Below are positions 4,761 through 63,810 of a stretch of DNA of 64,000 nt, piece by piece. Positions within the stretch are counted from its first letter, which is position 1, and each line of letters opens with the position of its first letter. A program made the position numbers and the translations under genes. The stretch lies in sequence record PX880101.1. One strand, written 5' to 3'. Under the pieces are notes generated by a model. That model did no database searches, was not told the origin of the DNA, and saw only the letters and a program-made list of their open reading frames with translations. This stretch comes from a phage.

Positions 4761-4950
4761 GCTTAAATCTGCATGGAACATCGCTGTGGGGGACGAGATC
4801 CGTATCCCAGGTGGAAAGACCATTATGAAGATATCTCGTATTGAGTACGAAGGTGACCGTGTATTCCACATCTTCGCAGAAGATGGTCGAGAAATTTATA
4901 TACAGGCAGGTTCTCACATTTATATCCGTAAGAAAGGGGACGACAAATGA
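4747..4950 (+). CDS. hypothetical protein
   Basis: ORF overlapping neighbours, consistent with translational coupling. Confidence 0.4.
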   Translation: MQMFKLKSAWNIAVGDEIRIPGGKTIMKISRIEYEGDRVFHIFAEDGREIYIQAGSHIYIRKKGDDK

Positions 4951-5276
4951 CAGAGATCATCATTTCAACTGCAGGGTATGTGTTCCTGACAATCATTGCA
5001 CTGACTATTTTGGTGACAGTGTATGGGTTTGTTATCCTTCCTATCCTTGAGACATTTAGTTTGTGTCGGTGTTGGAGAAAAGCTTACGGTCCACAACCAT
5101 GGAAGGACTGGCCCCACCTGGTGCGCTTAGCGTTCTCTTATGCTTACGATCACTCCAGTAGTGCATGCATAACCGGATACCACGCCCACAACTGGAGCTG
5201 GGAAGGATTGAGGAAATGGAATGTTACAAAGACCATACCTCTACGCATGTACAAACCTAAAAACAAAGACAGCTGA
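4947..5276 (+). CDS. putative membrane protein
   Basis: N-terminal hydrophobic stretch AGYVFLTIIALTILVTVYGFVILPIL. Confidence 0.4.
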   Translation: MTEIIISTAGYVFLTIIALTILVTVYGFVILPILETFSLCRCWRKAYGPQPWKDWPHLVRLAFSYAYDHSSSACITGYHAHNWSWEGLRKWNVTKTIPLRMYKPKNKDS

Positions 5277-5289
5277 TACTTGAAAATTC

Positions 5290-5790
5290 CTGGCATATCA
5301 AGTGTAAGGGGGATTTCTAAAATGGATTTCCTCCTTTTGATATTTCACCGGGCTGGATATTTTAAAATTCTTAGAAAATCAGAAAATGGATCGAAAACTA
5401 AAATGGATTTTTCAGAGTAGGCGCGACAAGCTGAATAACTCATCCTATCGTTTGCACCATATTCCAGGCCACCATTATAGATTTCCCACACATGCTAACC
5501 TCCCTCTACTAGAACTTCCTCCACTTGCCCTTAACCTTCTATGGTAACAATCTAACCACTATCTTGAAGTTGCGGTGCAGCTTTCCAAGTACTCGATCTA
5601 CTTTTCATTTCATGGCTTGGATTTTCTGAAAATTTTTCTCGATAAATTTCTCAGTACTCGATCTGTTTTTCGTTTTCTGAATCGGATTTTCTGGAAATCG
5701 TTCCGGATCTCGACCTGAAATTTTTGGGGACGAAATCGATTTTTCGTTTTCAGAAATGGATTTTTAAAATTTCTATATGGGAATATTTTA
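5290..5790. repeat. AT-rich iteron-like region (repeated aaaatggattt, ggattttctg, agtactcgatct, tttcgttttc units)
   Basis: Several short motifs each occur 2-4 times in direct orientation in an ORF-free stretch. Confidence 0.6.
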
Positions 5791-5879
5791 TGGGATACTG
5801 TTTTATAGGAAATTGTTACGGAGGGTAATTAGCATGCTAATTAAATTTATTAAATGCGAGGAGTTCTCATTTAGAATTT

Positions 5880-6100
5880 TGAATGATAATCATTCTCGTT
5901 TGCAGAATAACGGGCAGGCCCGGTGATTGTCTCCCGGCCCCTGTTGCCCCGGCTTGTTATTATAGTATCACACAGGACAAAGAAAGCAAGGATTTTTTGC
6001 ATAAATTTTTAAATGATAATGATAACCGTTCTCATTTTATGCAGCGCCCATCCCCGGTGGTTGTCTCCCCCGTCACCGGTGCCTGCCGTCCTTTCGATAG
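5880..6100. repeat. two tandem ~75 bp units sharing core GGTG(A/G)TTGTCTCCC
   Basis: Units beginning aatgataat...gcag...ccggtgattgtctccc occur twice in tandem; the ORF-track reading frame here is probably spurious. Confidence 0.6.
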
Positions 6101-6293
6101 GTATATTTTGCCACCTGGCGGGGCCGCTGTCAACACTTTTCAAAAAAAAATTTCTAACCTGATGCGCTGACCGCTGCAACCTGGCGGGGCCAGCCTGGCA
6201 GGGCCTAACTGACCAGGTAGGAGATAATGAAGGCTTGCAAACCTGGTGGGCCTATGCTATAGGATAGGTAACAATTGAAGAGGAGGTACAAAA

Positions 6294-6470
6294 ATGGAAG
6301 GTAATATGATCCCCCTGGAAAATGTAGCTATTAATGACACTGAGGCTATCGCCCTGGTTGAAAAGGCTATGGCGGGAGCGTTGGAACATAAAGAAGAGTA
6401 CGAAAAAATGATGGTTAACCTGGCAGGGGCGGCGGCTGGAGAATTCTACCCAAAAAATAATTTTAACTAA
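6294..6470 (+). CDS. hypothetical small protein (58 aa, below ORF-track cutoff)
   Basis: ATG 8 nt after gaggagg RBS; hand-translated MEGNMIPLENVAIN... to TAA at 6468. Confidence 0.4.
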   Translation: MEGNMIPLENVAINDTEAIALVEKAMAGALEHKEEYEKMMVNLAGAAAGEFYPKNNFN

Positions 6471-15597: not shown

Positions 15598-15651
15598 ATA
15601 AAAAGTGTTTTGGTACTGATTTTGGGGTTGACTTGTTCGGCCCCTTTTGCT

Positions 15652-15707
15652 ATTCTTATTAAACGGGCGGCACTTGGGAACAGGGGGAGACAATCACCAG
15701 GCCTGCC
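15652..15707 (-). repeat. inverted copy of the GGCAGGCC-GGTGATTGTCTCCC element seen at 5913-5958
   Basis: Reverse complement caggcaggcctggtgattgtctccccctgttccc closely matches gggcaggcccggtgattgtctcccggcccctgttgccc. Confidence 0.55.
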
Positions 15708-17024: not shown

Positions 17025-17599
17025 TCTGTATTTCTCCTACCACAAACGGCCCAGCCTGGCAAGTGGAATAATTGACTAGCCATCAATCCCACACACTGTA
17101 CAAATATACATGGAAAATAACTATTGCATAATTTTTCATTGTGTGGTAGCAAGTCCATTTTTACCCGTTTTCTCTCTCAAAATTGCACGTAATGCCGCTA
17201 TTGCACAAATTTTAACCTGATGCACATCTCCAATATCTTGTCAACAACTAAAAATCTTTATAAGTCATACACTTACACAGCATCGAAAGCGTGTTCTACG
17301 CGAAAAATCGAGTATAACTATAGCCGCCAGATCTCAGAATTCACGTACGCACGCCATTCTATAGCCTGCAAAGTATTTATTCCAACCACAGAATAACGGA
17401 ATAGTCAATACCTGCATAAAATAATTATTCGTGTAAACTGCATAACATAAATCAGCTCAGGTGTCAACATTTTTCGTAAACAGTCCGAAATTATCACGAT
17501 GAGTTATCATAAACAGAGAAATCTTTAGTCGTCTAATGTTTACTGTACATTACTATACTGACTGGAATCATTAGATGACTAAGAGAAAGATAAGAAATA

Positions 17600-18020
17600 A
17601 TTAATAATGTAATTATTTTACCTGTAACAATAAGGCAACTATGCAAACGAATGGCATGGCGCGACGGAGTCGCGACATAATATAAAAGCAGTAACCATCA
17701 CCCCCGTGATAGTTTGTCTGCAATCTATTAATCAGATCATAGTTGCCTTGTATTCAGTTAATCATGACATAATAAGCAAGGCAACTATAGATCTGCTAAT
17801 AGTTGCCCTGCTTTTATATTATGTCATAGAAACACCCGAAGGGGTGACCAAAGGTCACCTGGCATGGCCAGTGAAAGATTATTAACTTGTTAATTGTTAA
17901 CTTGCTAATTGTTTTCATGCAAACGAATGTCATGGCTTATCCTATCTGTGTAAACAGTTAAGGTGTAAACTATCCAGGCGTAAACAGTCTATGCGGGAAC
18001 AATCTATACGTGAACAGTGA
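17600..18020. repeat. cluster of direct and inverted repeats
   Basis: AGGCAACTAT x4 in both orientations; catgcaaacgaatg(g/t)catggc x2; palindrome ggtgacc-aaa-ggtcacc; five copies of a G(T/C)GTAAACAG-like iteron between 17945 and 18015. Confidence 0.6.
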
Positions 18021-18629
18021 AACATGAAATAATAACAATCGTTATTGTGTCGAAAGTGTATAAGGTGTCATAGTATGTCAGACAAGTTTTTCTCCTCTTT
18101 GTCAAGTGCTGCATGAAAATTTACAAACTGGTATGGTAGCATTTTTGCGGCCCTGTTTACATTCAGTTGTGTATGTATAACCCTTGTTGTGTGGGCGTTT
18201 AGACGTCTGGACGGTTGGAAGTCTACAGGTCAATATCTAATCTATTGGCTGCTAACTATATCCCACACAAATAGTAAGAAATACAATTGTTATGTGAGTA
18301 AACGGTAACTCATGTTATCAATCCCTGTATGGATCGCCAGTGGTGCGCATAATGGGTATTATGTTAAATTGCCCGTAATGATAACTATTCTCACAATGAT
18401 AGGTATTCTCATTCACTCCCACAAGATAGGTTGCAAATGTTGTGCCACTGTGTGAACGGCCTCACCTATTAATTTGCCTCACTGCCTCGATATTTGAGAA
18501 TTGTTATAAGAATGAGAAGTATTCCCATTTCGTCCGCCTGGCAGCACTCCAGTCGCTACCGCTCATGACAGGGCAGAACTGGGTCCATTCAGATATTTCT
18601 GGCTGACTCTTCAGGTCTGTGTGGGAAAA

Positions 18630-18810
18630 GCCAACCTCTCCGGCGGGGCAGGGGTAGGTCAATTAAAAAATTTACGTGGTGTATGAAGAGCCCTTCAGGT
18701 AAGGCATGTATTATGGGATGAAACACCCTTCAGGCAATGATATTTGTGGGTGGGATATTTGCTGGAAAGCCAGATATGACGGGACTCCTGGCGGGGCAGG
18801 GGTAGTACAG
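18630..18810. repeat. direct repeats (ggcggggcaggggtag x2; cccttcagg x2)
   Basis: Two ~17 bp units about 148 bp apart, plus a second repeated unit between them. Confidence 0.55.
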
Positions 18811-19500
18811 ACAGGGGAAATATGGTGGATGTAGTTGGGTGGATTGATCAGGCAGGTAGAGTATGGAATATGTTACAAGTATGTTAAATATGGAGGATGA
18901 ATATCTGTAGGATTTGTGTGTAAAATCAAAGACTTAAGTGGTGTTGTGGTATTTTCTATAAATAATTCAAGTTTAATAGGTAATATTTGTCTCTATCCGC
19001 TTTGTGTGGTAAACAAATTCAGATGGTGTTGGTTTACAAGTGTATACATAATATACAAATTAAAGATACAAGAAACCCCCCTCCCCCTTCGGCTACCATT
19101 CACCTTTTCCTCTGACTGGTACTTAAACACTTATTCAGACTCTTCAGGTTATCACCCATATATCATATGGCAGTGACTGGTGTCCTCCGGCCCCTCTTTC
19201 GTCACCCGTCCGCTTCGCCATGCTAATGCCATAGCCAACGGTTCGGTTGTTCACCCTGTTCACTCAGGTGTATCTCCATACCCCTTCAAACCGAAGAGAA
19301 CAGAAAACCCGAATTACTCGGTAAAAGAAAAGAGAAGAACTTAATTTTATCAGGATAGGCAAGAATGTCAAGGCATGACTGCTCACTAAACAAGCAAACA
19401 GTCATGTGTGGAAGGTAAGTGATTGTGGTGGTAGGAAATTTAGTTGAAAGATGTGTTATAGGTGCGCTTCCAGCACTTTAGCCGGGCAGCTAATTGTGTG

Positions 19501-57979: not shown

Positions 57980-58120
57980 ATAAAGAATATAACTAAAATA
58001 ACTAAATAATAAAAAAATAAAAGATCTAGTACTTATGGTACTAAAGTACATATACTTAACTTATGTAGAATATACCAGATCCTAAGTACCATGTTTTAAA
58101 TTTATTACTTACTATAGGTA

Positions 58121-60344: not shown

Positions 60345-60419
60345 GCCCTGTTAGCTTAGTGGATAAAGCAGCGGCCTTCTAAGCCGTTGACACTGGTTCG
60401 AGTCCAGTACGGGGTGCCA
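60345..60419 (+). tRNA. tRNA-Arg (anticodon TCT)
   Basis: Hand-folded cloverleaf: acceptor GCCCTGT/ACGGGGT with G-U pairs, loop CTTCTAA, T-loop TTCGAGT, encoded CCA. Confidence 0.75.
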
Positions 60420-60423
60420 AATT

Positions 60424-60510
60424 GGGGAGTTATCCCGTAGAGGTAGCGGTGTAGACTGTAAATCTATTGTCATTGCGACTCGGGTGGTTCGACTCCACCA
60501 CTCCCCACCA
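60424..60510 (+). tRNA. tRNA-Tyr (anticodon GTA)
   Basis: Acceptor GGGGAGT/ACTCCCC, loop CTGTAAA, long variable arm, T-loop TTCGACT, CCA. Confidence 0.8.
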
Positions 60511-60624
60511 AATTTATATTTTTAGATGCATAAATAATACAGATAATGGCATTGATATTTATCGTCGTTTATACTAGTCACTAACTGCTCGAAAATCAGT
60601 GTCATTATCAGTATAATTTATAAA

Positions 60625-60715
60625 GGAGGGTAGGGAGCAATGGTGCTCAAGCGGTCTTGAAAACCGTCCCGTTGGGTATGACTCGATGATGGTTCGATTC
60701 CATTACTCTCCGCCA
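60625..60715 (+). tRNA. tRNA-Ser (anticodon TGA)
   Basis: Acceptor GGAGGGT/ACTCTCC, loop CTTGAAA, long variable arm, T-loop TTCGATT, CCA. Confidence 0.7.
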
Positions 60716-60813
60716 CATTGTTGACCTTGTAATTAAGCGAAAGCCGGAAGCAGAACCGGATTATCAAATGTTACAGTCGTCATCGCCGACTAGCAACATG
60801 GTCAACATACTGA

Positions 60814-60912
60814 GCTAGGTAAGCCCTTTGGCAAGGGCGAGGATTTTTAATCCTGAAAATAGACGAGGTAGTAGTTGAATACATAGGTGGTTCGATTCCA
60901 TCACCTAGCACC
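60814..60912 (+). tRNA. aberrant tRNA-like element (possible Lys-TTT loop) with ~29 nt insertion before the T-arm
   Basis: Perfect acceptor GCTAGGT/ACCTAGC, D-arm GCCC-TTTGGCAA-GGGC, T-loop GGTTCGATTCC, but oversized variable region and imperfect anticodon stem; no encoded CCA. Confidence 0.35.
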
Positions 60913-60917
60913 TTTTT

Positions 60918-60993
60918 GCTGATGTAGCACAATCGGTAGTGCAATTGATTTGTAATCAATAGGTTGTAGGTTCAAGTCCTGCCATCAGCACCA
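60918..60993 (+). tRNA. tRNA-Thr (anticodon TGT)
   Basis: Acceptor GCTGATG/CATCAGC, D-arm GCAC/GTGC, loop TTTGTAA, T-loop TTCAAGT, CCA. Confidence 0.8.
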
Positions 60994-60994
60994 A

Positions 60995-61069
60995 GGCCCT
61001 GTAGCTGGAAGGTTCAAGCAAGCGACTCATAATCGCCAGACGGTGGTTCAATTCCACCCAGGGCCACCA
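60995..61069 (+). tRNA. tRNA-Met (anticodon CAT; could be Ile-lysidine type)
   Basis: Acceptor GGCCCTG/CAGGGCC, loop CTCATAA, T-loop TTCAATT, CCA; no initiator-type features. Confidence 0.7.
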
Positions 61070-61080
61070 AATAATAAATA

Positions 61081-61157
61081 CTCCGCGTAGCTCAGCTTGG
61101 TAGAGCGCCTGATTTGGGATCAGGAGGTCGAGTGTTCGAATCACTCCGTGGAGACCA
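61081..61157 (+). tRNA. tRNA-Pro (anticodon TGG)
   Basis: Acceptor CTCCGCG/CGTGGAG (C1:G72), D-arm GCTC/GAGC, loop TTTGGGA, T-loop TTCGAAT, CCA. Confidence 0.75.
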
Positions 61158-61979: not shown

Positions 61980-62263
61980 GAGTTGCCACACTGTTTATTG
62001 CGTGCTTGTTATTATGTGGGTGTGCAACCAGCGTTGAGAGAGAATACAAGATTGACCCTCCGGATGTAGGAAGGTTGATTGTTAAACCCCCAGAAGGTGC
62101 CATGAAACCACCTGCTAAAGCTATGCCTTTGAAGAAAGGTGCGCCAGATGCAGTGAATTCTGGCATTATGAGGGATAATAATCTGTCTTGTAGCAATGAT
62201 AGAGCTAAATTGATCATTTTGCAAGACTATATTAGAACACTGTTTCCAAAGGAGAGAGGTTAA
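61976..62263 (+). CDS. putative o-spanin (Rz1-like outer-membrane lipoprotein)
   Basis: Signal peptide with lipobox-like LLCGC, proline-rich mature part; start overlaps upstream stop. Confidence 0.5.
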   Translation: MRVATLFIACLLLCGCATSVEREYKIDPPDVGRLIVKPPEGAMKPPAKAMPLKKGAPDAVNSGIMRDNNLSCSNDRAKLIILQDYIRTLFPKERG

Positions 62264-63810
62264 TGTCTAAGATTTACGGACCGTGTTCTGAAAAGCAGAA
62301 GATGATCCTCGAAAACGATGCAGATATCTTGGTAATCGGCGGTGCCGCAGGGTCTGGCAAGTCGTTCCTCTTGCAGTTGATGCCACTTAAAATTATTGAT
62401 GACCCCCACAGCTCTGTGGTTATGTTCCGAAGAACAACCCCACAGTTGGAAGGTGAGGGTGGACTATGGCCTAAAGCAGTAGCTATTTATAGTGATCTGC
62501 CTGAAAACATTAAGCCAAAGTTCAGAGAGAAGGATCATAAGTTCATTTTTCCACGGTTTGATCCGAACACTGGTAAGTGGGATAGAAGCAAAAAGGGAGC
62601 TGTTGTAAAATACTGCCATATGGAGTATGTGCAAGATAAGCTTAACCATCAGGGGCTTGAGTACACCATGGTTTGCTTCGATGAGGGCACGCAGTTCGAA
62701 TGGGAGCAGATAGACTACCTGATGTCTCGTCTGCGATCTCAGTCAAAGTATCCATCAAGAATGGTTATCAGCTGTAACCCCGATTCAGAACACATGCTTG
62801 CCAAACTGGTTAGATGGTGGTTGGACGATGAAGGGTATCCAGATCCGGAGAAATGCGGTAAGAAAAGATATTTTATCCGACGCGACGGGGAATTTATCTG
62901 GGGAGATTCTAAAGAAGAGTTGATAGAGAAATACACCACGGTTAACGGACTTGGTGTAGAGATCAAGCCAAGACCGTTGTCATTCTCGTTCATAGGCGCA
63001 ACAATATTCGATAATCCTGTCTGTTTGAGAGACAACCCAGAATACCTTGCTTTCCTCGAAGGTCTACCAGAGCTGGAAAAAGCTCAGCTTCTCCATGGTA
63101 ACTGGTTTGCAAAGCCTGAGGGTGCAAACTATTTTCAAAGATCTTTCCTTCGTGATGCCGATAGAGTACCTCTTGGGTCAGTATCTTGCAGGGCATGGGA
63201 TAAGGCAGGAACCGAGAGAACTTCCGGTAATAAATTTCCTGACTTTACTGCCAGTATTAAGGTAAGTAAAGATAGCGACGGCTTTTATTACCTGTCCGGT
63301 GATTATTGTCCTGAGAACGTGGATGACGGGAGGTATTCCACAGGTCTGGAAGGCAAGTTCTGTAAAAAGGCTGGTGAACGAGATGTGATCATCAGGAAAC
63401 AGGCGCAGTTCGATGGTGATGATTGCATAATCGTCTTCTCTGTAGACCCAGGGCAGGCAGGTAAGAGTGAGTTCTTAACCTCCTCCAGATCCTTGCTTGC
63501 CGAAGGGTTCAGGGTTGAAGAAGACCCAATGCCTTCCAACAAGTCTAAACTGACAAGGTTCTCACCTTTTGCCAATCTTGCCCAACAAGGAATGGTGAGG
63601 ATTGTAAAATCCAGTTTCCATCCTGATACTCTGGAAGCATTTCTGACTGAACTTGAAAAATTCAACGGGGAAAGATCAACATTTAACAGAAAAGACGACT
63701 GGGCCGACTGCGTAGCTTCTGCGATTAATTTCCTGGAGAAAGAGGAGGTAGCACTTCCTTGTGTGATTCCATCAATCTCATCACCTTCTATGTTCAAGCG
63801 TTTTATCTAA
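62263..63810 (+). CDS. terminase large subunit
   Basis: Walker A ILVIGGAAGSGKS, Walker B MVCFDEGTQ, C-terminal nuclease-like acidic residues, 515 aa. Confidence 0.8.
   Translation: MSKIYGPCSEKQKMILENDADILVIGGAAGSGKSFLLQLMPLKIIDDPHSSVVMFRRTTPQLEGEGGLWPKAVAIYSDLPENIKPKFREKDHKFIFPRFDPNTGKWDRSKKGAVVKYCHMEYVQDKLNHQGLEYTMVCFDEGTQFEWEQIDYLMSRLRSQSKYPSRMVISCNPDSEHMLAKLVRWWLDDEGYPDPEKCGKKRYFIRRDGEFIWGDSKEELIEKYTTVNGLGVEIKPRPLSFSFIGATIFDNPVCLRDNPEYLAFLEGLPELEKAQLLHGNWFAKPEGANYFQRSFLRDADRVPLGSVSCRAWDKAGTERTSGNKFPDFTASIKVSKDSDGFYYLSGDYCPENVDDGRYSTGLEGKFCKKAGERDVIIRKQAQFDGDDCIIVFSVDPGQAGKSEFLTSSRSLLAEGFRVEEDPMPSNKSKLTRFSPFANLAQQGMVRIVKSSFHPDTLEAFLTELEKFNGERSTFNRKDDWADCVASAINFLEKEEVALPCVIPSISSPSMFKRFI

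Follow-up and report, generated by a model that had tools for sequence, protein, structure and literature searches.

Within a 64,000-nucleotide (nt) stretch of phage DNA (sequence record PX880101.1, hereafter the window), a gene-free gap of about 1 kb (5277-6293) carries an array of three long composite direct repeats (5579-5767). Because the array is conserved within its genus and across genera, a cis-acting function is well supported, and the repeats are best described as a DNA-level element that is conserved without coding capacity or RNA structure. The window belongs to a Vequintavirus genome (an rV5-like Escherichia coli myovirus; genomes of the genus measure ~136 kb). The boxes from which the repeats are built are most economically read as putative binding sites for a phage-encoded protein, and we propose, tentatively, that the locus may be a transcription-activated or transcription-primed replication origin.

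The three-unit array and its conservation

The first-pass annotation of 5290-5790 had listed four families of short direct repeats, all of which are present in the sequence and nearly confined to the locus within the 64 kb. AGTACTCGATCT occurs exactly twice (5588 and 5653), as does GGATTTTCTG (5619 and 5684), and TTTCGTTTTC lies at 5668 and 5742 with one further, unrelated minus-strand copy at 841. The four copies claimed for aaaatggattt are found for the 8-mer AAATGGAT, whose occurrences at 5320, 5384, 5401 and 5754 are the only ones on both strands of the 64 kb and all fall inside 442 bp, but not for the longer form, the 10-mer AAATGGATTT being observed three times (0.44 expected). These short repeats are pieces of longer direct repeats, namely a 47-62-nt unit present three times (starts at 5579, 5644 and 5718; spacing 65 and 74 nt; identity 74-76%). 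At the 65-nt offset 37 of 47 positions match, compared with 25.4 +/- 1.2 (maximum 31) in 300 dinucleotide shuffles. When a repeat finder, suggested earlier as a check, was applied, Tandem Repeats Finder returned trivial arrays only, because the units are too diverged.

The unit consists of Box I (AGTACTCGATCT, listed earlier as agtactcgatct), a T-rich spacer of exactly 19 nt and Box II (yGGATTTTCTG, covering the earlier ggattttctg and aaatggattt), with exactly 26 bp from the start of Box I to the start of Box II. The combination CTCGATC-N19-YGGATTT occurs twice at the locus and 0.00 times in shuffles. The three units are as follows.

5579-5643, plus strand: repeat unit 1, with Box I AGTACTCGATCT at 5588-5599 (including GATC), 19-nt T-rich spacer and Box II TGGATTTTCTG at 5618-5628
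5644-5717, plus strand: repeat unit 2, with Box I AGTACTCGATCT at 5653-5664, 19-nt spacer and Box II CGGATTTTCTG at 5683-5693
5718-5767, plus strand: repeat unit 3, with degenerate Box I (CGAAATC, 5731-5737), 19-nt spacer and Box II TGGATTTTTAA at 5757-5767

Unit 1 ends in an A4T5 tract (5629-5637), and Box II of unit 2 is followed by a variable patch (5695-5717) that contains the half-box GGATCTCGACC. GATC is reported within every Box I, that of unit 3 being degenerate. No second copy of the region was found elsewhere in the window; an entry of two places in a BLAST table was rejected as a second genomic copy since it reflects the internal repeats.

The gap is about 1 kb long because the upstream gene ends at 5276 and the next conserved gene starts at 6294; the segment of 500 bp reported previously is indeed gene-free, but it forms only the left half of a gap about twice that length. 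Its description as free of open reading frames (ORFs) does not hold literally, as ORFs of 46-95 amino acids exist, though none has a coding substitution pattern. This was determined from codon-position substitutions in an alignment of eight Vequintavirus genomes (82-92% identical, 3.5 kb), in which three of four flanking control genes have a third-position excess (19/11/49, 7/3/40 and 10/7/20) and the ORFs of the gap, on both strands, are all flat (23/27/22, 13/14/11, 5/4/5, 3/1/4, 8/9/10, 3/3/2 and 7/7/8). The fourth control, the first gene past the gap (6294-6470), is also flat (10/13/13) and may be under relaxed constraint, or misaligned in one relative; just upstream of it a segment of 46-48 nt (~6201-6248) is deleted in FV3, Mangalyan and YP-6. 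Small coding ORFs, including one of 17 amino acids on the minus strand and one of 30 amino acids with a good Shine-Dalgarno sequence at 5834, were rejected by frame comparison and codon-position profiles. Judged by these profiles, the gap 5277-6293 is non-coding.

That the stretch might be nothing special, consisting of decayed or very small genes with repeats left over from old duplications, and that ORF198 and ORF199 of rV5 and their equivalents are real proteins, is in our view scarcely credible. GenBank records do annotate ORFs here, and in each of the eight Vequintavirus genomes one frame stays open across 5575-5718; the records differ in which ORFs they annotate, however, several annotating none. 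The codon-position profiles are flat, the open frame in mid-gap differs between clades because of 1-nt indels, the unit spacings of 65 and 74 nt place the three units in three different reading frames, conservation equals or exceeds that of coding DNA, and the architecture is kept across genera whose flanking genes differ.

Pairwise identity among the eight genomes is ~0.92 in the aligned genes. In the gap it reaches 0.97 (5377-5416), 0.94-0.99 (most of 5617-5776) and 0.94-1.0 (5857-6136), so that the repeat blocks are conserved as well as or better than coding DNA within Vequintavirus, and there are zero indels in 5586-6140. Taken as blocks, 5377-5416, 5617-5696 and 5737-6136 have values of 0.94-1.0, which points to purifying selection on non-coding DNA. 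Between these blocks, 5417-5576 has an identity of 0.69-0.80, the lowest of the alignment barring the indel at ~6200-6250. A BLAST search with 4900-6300 matched 122 phage records, of which Escherichia phage MaxTheCat is 99.8% identical over this range and many other Vequintavirus genomes are 96-99% identical. Sixteen of the matching records (MG0656xx) are named 'Campylobacter phage' with C. jejuni as host; they are 93-98% identical to E. coli Vequintaviruses here and look like mislabelled or contaminant coliphage genomes.

Searches with the left half matched Vequintavirus genomes only. The right half (5841-6200) matched 251 records, including Seunavirus, Certrevirus, Klebsiella phages and Phapecoctavirus (of a separate subfamily, Stephanstirmvirinae), the matches beyond the genus covering a core of ~60-110 nt at 72-86% identity. 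The loci compared from other genera (GAP31, GEC_vB_MG, KP12, phiTE, F4M1E, POP15, W70 and Phapecoctavirus ukendt) are ORF-poor gaps of 0.9-1.3 kb with parts in one common order: the stop codon of an unrelated upstream gene, two to four copies of GATATTT(G), short GAAATGGTTTT-type repeats, a variable middle, a long direct-repeat array, one to four palindromes (AATGAGAAT-N-ATTCTCATT), a GC-rich core with CGGTGnTTGTCTC, and minus-strand promoter-like sites. In GAP31, GEC_vB_MG, KP12, phiTE, F4M1E and POP15 the array has three full units with the same grammar as in the window, i.e., Box I (G)GTnCTCGATC(G), exactly 19 T-rich nt and Box II CG(T/G)ATT(T)TTCT. Unit spacings there are 76+67, 75+67, 74+67 and 78+63 bp as compared with 65+74 bp in the window, and because of this pairing the distance from the first to the third unit is always 139-143 bp (Vequintavirus, Seunavirus, KP12 and Certrevirus). 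The distance from unit 3 to the GC-rich core is ~190 bp in the window and 155-197 bp for the third unit in other genera.

At the equivalent position W70 carries a different repeat (GAGAACTTGAGAGGTTTTTC), in four copies, and Phapecoctavirus ukendt a 72-nt repeat whose sequence is different again and which is present two to three times. Such an exchange of repeats at one place would fit a binding protein that co-evolves with its sites. A scan of IMG/VR with a 16-mer gave 32 matches, 31 of them by chance and one a true homologue. The repeats are thus conserved in relatives (Vequintavirus, Seunavirus, Certrevirus and KP12), and the finding that the first-pass annotation had named as its refutation, repeats not conserved in related genomes, did not materialise.

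Palindromes, core and predicted leftward promoters

The part of the gap to the right of the array contains the following features; promoter-like sites were obtained with a position-weight scan for sigma-70 sites.

5755-5854, no strand: easily melted AT-rich segment of conserved sequence, with a perfect 18-bp palindrome TAATTAGCATGCTAATTA at 5826-5843
5853-5871 and 5882-5900, no strand: two palindromic boxes of the family AATGAnAAnnnTTCTCATT
5879-5908, plus strand: weak rightward promoter-like site, TTGAAT-18-CAGAAT (score 7.3), with a palindrome exactly between the hexamers
5909-5960, no strand: GC-rich core with the near-invariant motif CGGTGATTGTCTCC; GGTGATTGT starts at 5922
5962-5989, minus strand: P_L1, weak leftward promoter-like site, TTGCTT-16-TACTAT with TG (score 7.7), at +40 from the core
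6015-6068, no strand: second copy of box and core (box 6018-6036; core GGTGGTTGTCTCC, 6056-6068)
6105-6133, minus strand: P_L2, leftward promoter, TTGACA-17-CAAAAT with TG (score 12.7, >99.99th percentile), the only strong sigma-70-type site in the gap
6109-6205, no strand: GC-rich direct repeats, three copies of TGCCACCTGGCGGGGCC, forming the right edge of the conserved block and followed by the indel, a Shine-Dalgarno sequence and the gene start at 6294

At -1.117 kcal/mol/bp, as compared with a window mean of -1.327 (standard deviation 0.061), 5755-5854 is the fourth least stable 100 bp in the 64 kb. The least stable and most AT-rich 100-bp stretch of the window is 57980-58080, near the other transcription switch point (~56-58 kb). 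For the locus as a whole the earlier label 'AT-rich' has to be toned down: the repeat blocks are 60-77% AT, but the middle is 55%.

The right half (5853-6140) is nearly invariant in the genus and consists of two modules, each made of a Fur-box-like palindrome and the core (CGGTGrTTGTCTCC). The first module is the part recovered at 72-86% identity in Seunavirus, Certrevirus, Klebsiella phages and Phapecoctavirus, and the core is recognisable in Seunavirus, Certrevirus, the KP12/Mydovirus group, W70 and Phapecoctavirus. The enterobacterial Fur box is a 19-bp sequence, GATAATGATAATCATTATC. The palindromes match it at 15-16 of 19 positions in the window and at 17 of 19 in relatives (counted from the alignment): the second box scores 15/19 (5879-5897), and 6015-6033, at 16/19, is the best match in the 64 kb (shuffles gave 0.04 matches at >=16 and 0.58 at >=15). 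As at Fur-repressed promoters, the boxes come in arrays and one of them overlaps a promoter-like site, which marks it as a putative operator. Unlike Fur boxes, those of the phage are symmetrical about a centre of their own (AATGAGAAT-N-ATTCTCATT), and binding by Fur is only putative. The Fur-like boxes lie outside the range 5290-5790 flagged before, and a search for similarity of their region to E. coli chromosomes gave nothing significant.

The leftward sites keep their hexamers and the length of the spacer, but its sequence varies. Five other genomes have good sites (TTGCAA-17-TATATT; TTGATC-16-TATTAT) at the offset of P_L1, +39 to +42 from the core, and all eight genomes scanned have a counterpart of P_L2 at +183 to +207. 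A third leftward site, a strong one that points directly into the array, is present in Seunavirus and KP12. The rightward site faces P_L1 at a distance of ~40 bp, and the placement of a box between its hexamers is conserved across genera. Downstream of the leftward promoters no minus-strand gene was found in the window, and there is no intrinsic terminator on the minus strand inside the gap. A terminator hairpin annotated in phiTE (CACC-CCT-GGTG) was rejected, as it is broken in the window and in some relatives (GG for CC) without a compensating change.

The leader motif GGGAGACAAyCACC follows three promoters of the window at ~+22 to +45, namely P_L1, P_L2 and a plus-strand site (15628-15656), which suggests that promoter and leader may form a reusable module. 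The third core copy (15628-15707) has the opposite orientation, follows the plus-strand promoter TTGACT-17-TATTCT and precedes real genes; a second promoter after it matches the published P168 of rV5.

These features raise an alternative to a replication role, i.e., that the locus is a transcriptional control region or switch. The palindromes would be operators for host Fur or a phage repressor that gate the rightward promoter TTGAAT-18-CAGAAT facing the leftward promoters, and the repeat units together with the left module would be an upstream binding array on which a phage regulator loops or wraps the DNA and so times the flanking early-gene blocks. We regard this as a possible account, only slightly less likely than an origin. 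The locus divides two plus-strand gene blocks that are rich in strong sigma-70 promoters (these sites, on both sides, agree with the published rV5 promoter list), box 2 sits exactly between -35-like and -10-like hexamers across genera, the boxes match the Fur box at 15-16 of 19 positions, and real genes elsewhere are preceded by the same promoter-leader module. The box family, moreover, is confined to this locus and a second non-coding locus (18377, 18395 and 18511), which fits a small regulon. Against it, 190-330 bp separate the array from the candidate rightward promoter, itself a weak site; in Vequintavirus the leftward promoters lack a gene to express; a fixed count and a fixed span of ~141 bp are unusual for operators; and no regulator was identified.

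Candidates for such a regulator are seen in relatives. A small minus-strand gene lies immediately to the right of the locus in KP12 (1807-2016 of the locus sequences), phiTE (1776-2207) and GAP31 (1817-2008), and by eye the products of KP12 and phiTE look like helix-turn-helix or winged-helix proteins and are candidate locus regulators, which would favour transcriptional control. The phiTE protein has no Pfam domain, and no homologue of these genes was found in the window.

A proposed replication origin and its alternatives

What we infer for the locus is firing of the leftward promoters, protein binding to the boxes and initiation of replication. The conserved host-type promoters P_L2 (6133..6105) and P_L1 (5989..5962) would drive transcription leftward, opposite in direction to the flanking genes and with no gene downstream. 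The transcripts would cross the operator-like palindromes and then the meltable AT-rich segment 5755-5854 before entering the three composite sites (Box I CTCGATC, 19 nt, Box II yGGATTT), where a lineage-specific phage DNA-binding protein would bind and organise or open the DNA, with initiation of DNA replication as the outcome.

Several findings are consistent with this proposal. All motif families are essentially unique to the locus in the 64 kb, and the leftward sites hold their offset from the core though their spacer sequences differ. Transcription-primed origins offer the closest layout. The primary origin of T7 has the tandem promoters phi1.1A/B and an AT-rich region, T4 oriF/oriG combine a promoter with a DNA-unwinding element, and ColE1 RNA II and the ori transcript of lactococcal phage c2 are further cases of transcription-primed initiation. 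The locus resembles them in that tandem predicted promoters (P_L1/P_L2) are directed into an ORF-free, non-coding, AT-rich and easily melted segment, and in the lack of DnaA boxes. It differs from them in its array of three long composite repeats, in that its promoters are of the host sigma-70 type behind operator-like palindromes, and in that the leftward transcript would be G-rich over 5416-5585, a trait specific to Vequintavirus; priming or an R-loop is hypothetical here. A further likeness to T7 comes from the rV5 paper, which reported a primase/helicase that is T7-like, being related to those of podoviruses, and in which a skew analysis gave no origin (PMC3606486). The lack of a recognised initiator in these phages also fits the proposal.

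The comparison with iteron origins is less close. As at lambda ori, P1 oriR, R6K, pSC101 and RK2, direct repeats lie next to an AT-rich, unwinding-type segment; as in P1 oriR and oriC, the repeats contain GATC; and as in the co-evolution of initiators and iterons, the repeat sequence changes by lineage while the layout stays. Iterons, however, come as at least three repeats of 17-22 bp at 11/22-bp phasing (spacing ~11/22/33 bp), whereas the units here measure ~62 nt, hold two short boxes 26 bp apart (the conserved boxes being 7-12 bp long) and recur at periods of 63-78 bp. No cognate initiator (Rep) gene lies beside the repeats or around them. The term 'iteron' of the first-pass annotation, taken in its classical sense, is therefore not supported.

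Other observations, too, weigh against an origin. Neither a perfect DnaA box (TTWTNCACA) nor an IHF consensus (WATCAANNNNTTR) is present in 5200-6300, the units are not helically phased and AA/TT periodicity is weak. No replication gene lies within several kb, the neighbours being endonuclease VII, a phosphatase and proteins without assigned function; GC skew has no turning point here; and a leftward fork would collide head-on with the genes to the left. Since the right half is promoter-operator-like, a purely transcriptional role is nearly as likely. The earlier wording 'origin-like or regulatory' stands insofar as conservation across genera points to cis-acting function, which may be that of an origin or of transcriptional control.

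A second ORF-poor region of the window (17.4-19.3 kb) likewise counts against an origin at 5277-6293, because its repeats are shorter and more like iterons and the palindromic boxes are present there as well. Larger than the present gap and situated at a switch of transcription direction, this region (17400-19350) is a rival origin candidate. The palindromic box family has its only other copies there (18377, 18395 and 18511), together with four copies of GATATTT (18489-18760), two of GGCGGGGCAGGGGTAG (18642 and 18790) and short GTAAAC(A/T)G-type repeats at ~17949-18015; from 19371..19344 a strong leftward promoter is directed into the region. The 'non-coding' box of the rV5 paper probably corresponds to this second region; the gap 5277-6293 was rejected for that identity because the rV5 record annotates ORFs 198 and 199 in the gap.

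With promoters that have no gene downstream, the transcript itself might be the product: a long leftward non-coding RNA (~0.6-0.8 kb) whose A-rich units act in RNA, be it as a sponge or decoy that captures an RNA-binding protein or a nuclease, or as antisense to the 3' end of the upstream gene. We consider this rather unlikely. The conservation of the leftward promoters without an ORF downstream, the extra strong promoter aimed directly at the array in Seunavirus and KP12, the lack of an intrinsic minus-strand terminator within the gap and the existence of phage repeat RNAs in the group (pseudo-ToxI of phiTE, at a different locus; PMC3475682) all speak for it. Against it, Rfam gave no match at E<=1 in the window and microRNA noise only in six related loci, and neither the array, on either strand, nor the spacer or the core folds better than shuffles. 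Folding energies on either strand gave z = -0.9, -0.9 and +0.2; over all folds the z-scores range from -2.5 to +0.2, most of them not significant, the marginal -2.5 belonging to 6100-6215 on the minus strand. Inspection of the core revealed no consistent compensatory changes, and the short dyads within the units are in different registers. Box I, in addition, is a DNA-type palindrome (CTCGATCGAG) in other genera, and an exact 19-nt spacing around a spacer of variable sequence suggests protein-DNA contacts.

A pac site for headful packaging, at which the small terminase subunit would recognise GATC repeats separated by bent A/T tracts, is very improbable. Vequintaviruses are reported to be terminally redundant and circularly permuted, i.e., headful (PMC8407724; PMC13211470). 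Four GATC sites lie within 5389-5709, with AnTn tracts between the units, and the layout resembles P1 pac and lambda cosB in having several GATC-containing or repeated sites separated by bent DNA in a headful phage; the three repeated sites in particular recall cosB. Unlike those sites, the locus has no mapped ends, includes promoters and operators, and lies far from the terminase genes, the large terminase gene being 57 kb away (62263-63810). A published PhageTerm run gives permutation only, with no defined pac end (PMC8407724), and the conserved promoters pointing into the array lack an obvious packaging role.

Left module, neighbouring features and implications

To the left of the array lie a pair of repeats spaced by 81 nt (at 5275 and 5356) and a variable spacer.

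5275-5330, plus strand: left repeat L1, GATACTTGAAAATTC...CTAAAATGGATTT, beginning at the stop codon of the upstream gene (4947-5276)
5356-5415, plus strand: left repeat L2, GATATTTTAAAATTCTTAGAAAATCAGAAAATGGATCGAAAACTAAAATGGATTTTTCAG, nearly invariant in the eight genomes
5416-5585, plus strand: variable spacer, the fastest-evolving stretch of the locus (pairwise identity ~0.69-0.80)

L1 varies among relatives and is absent in phage YP-6, in which an HNH homing-endonuclease gene (761-1405 of its locus sequence) is inserted directly to the left of the conserved L2 block. L2 contains one copy of GATATTT and two copies of AAATGGAT; its counterpart in other genera consists of two to four copies of GATATTTG followed by two of GAAATGGTTTT. 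The variable spacer falls into three sequence classes with the length kept at 169-172 nt, and no conserved reading frame was found in it among the eight Vequintavirus genomes. On the plus strand its C>G bias is the strongest in the window, a composition that other genera do not share, and the stretch is therefore treated as a lineage-specific spacer. For the same reason the C-rich, G-poor stretch was rejected as a conserved Rho-loading site or R-loop element. The pseudo-ToxI antitoxin-mimic RNA of phiTE was rejected as the identity of the variable middle, as it lies at 106.7 kb of phiTE.

Elsewhere, the window also carries ribonucleotide reductase genes, a transfer RNA (tRNA) cluster (60345-61157) and the large terminase gene (TerL). 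Within the tRNA cluster ARAGORN predicted a 99-nt tRNA-like gene (60814-60912) with a four-base anticodon (ATCC) and no amino acid assigned.

No published description of this locus was found in the literature searched on transcriptomes, origins and Fur boxes in these phages. The rV5-like phages are widely isolated and are used in biocontrol of E. coli O157 and in phage therapy, and the rV5 paper located no origin. The comparison reported here defines a conserved cis-acting locus, common to several genera and two subfamilies, in which three composite repeats are combined with leftward promoters, with Fur-like operators and with a GC-rich leader motif. The hypothetical ORFs annotated at this place in many GenBank records (rV5 ORF198 and ORF199) are probably not genes, and in genome engineering or minimising 5356-6140 should be treated as potentially essential in cis. 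The most far-reaching possibility, which we judge improbable, is that the 1-kb locus is an iron-sensing replication and transcription switch of the rV5-like phages (Vequintavirinae and Stephanstirmvirinae). Host Fur on the palindrome arrays would gate the face-to-face promoters, and the leftward transcripts would activate an unconventional origin, the three composite repeats, recognised by a rapidly co-evolving phage initiator; if true, the start of replication would be coupled to the iron status of the host.

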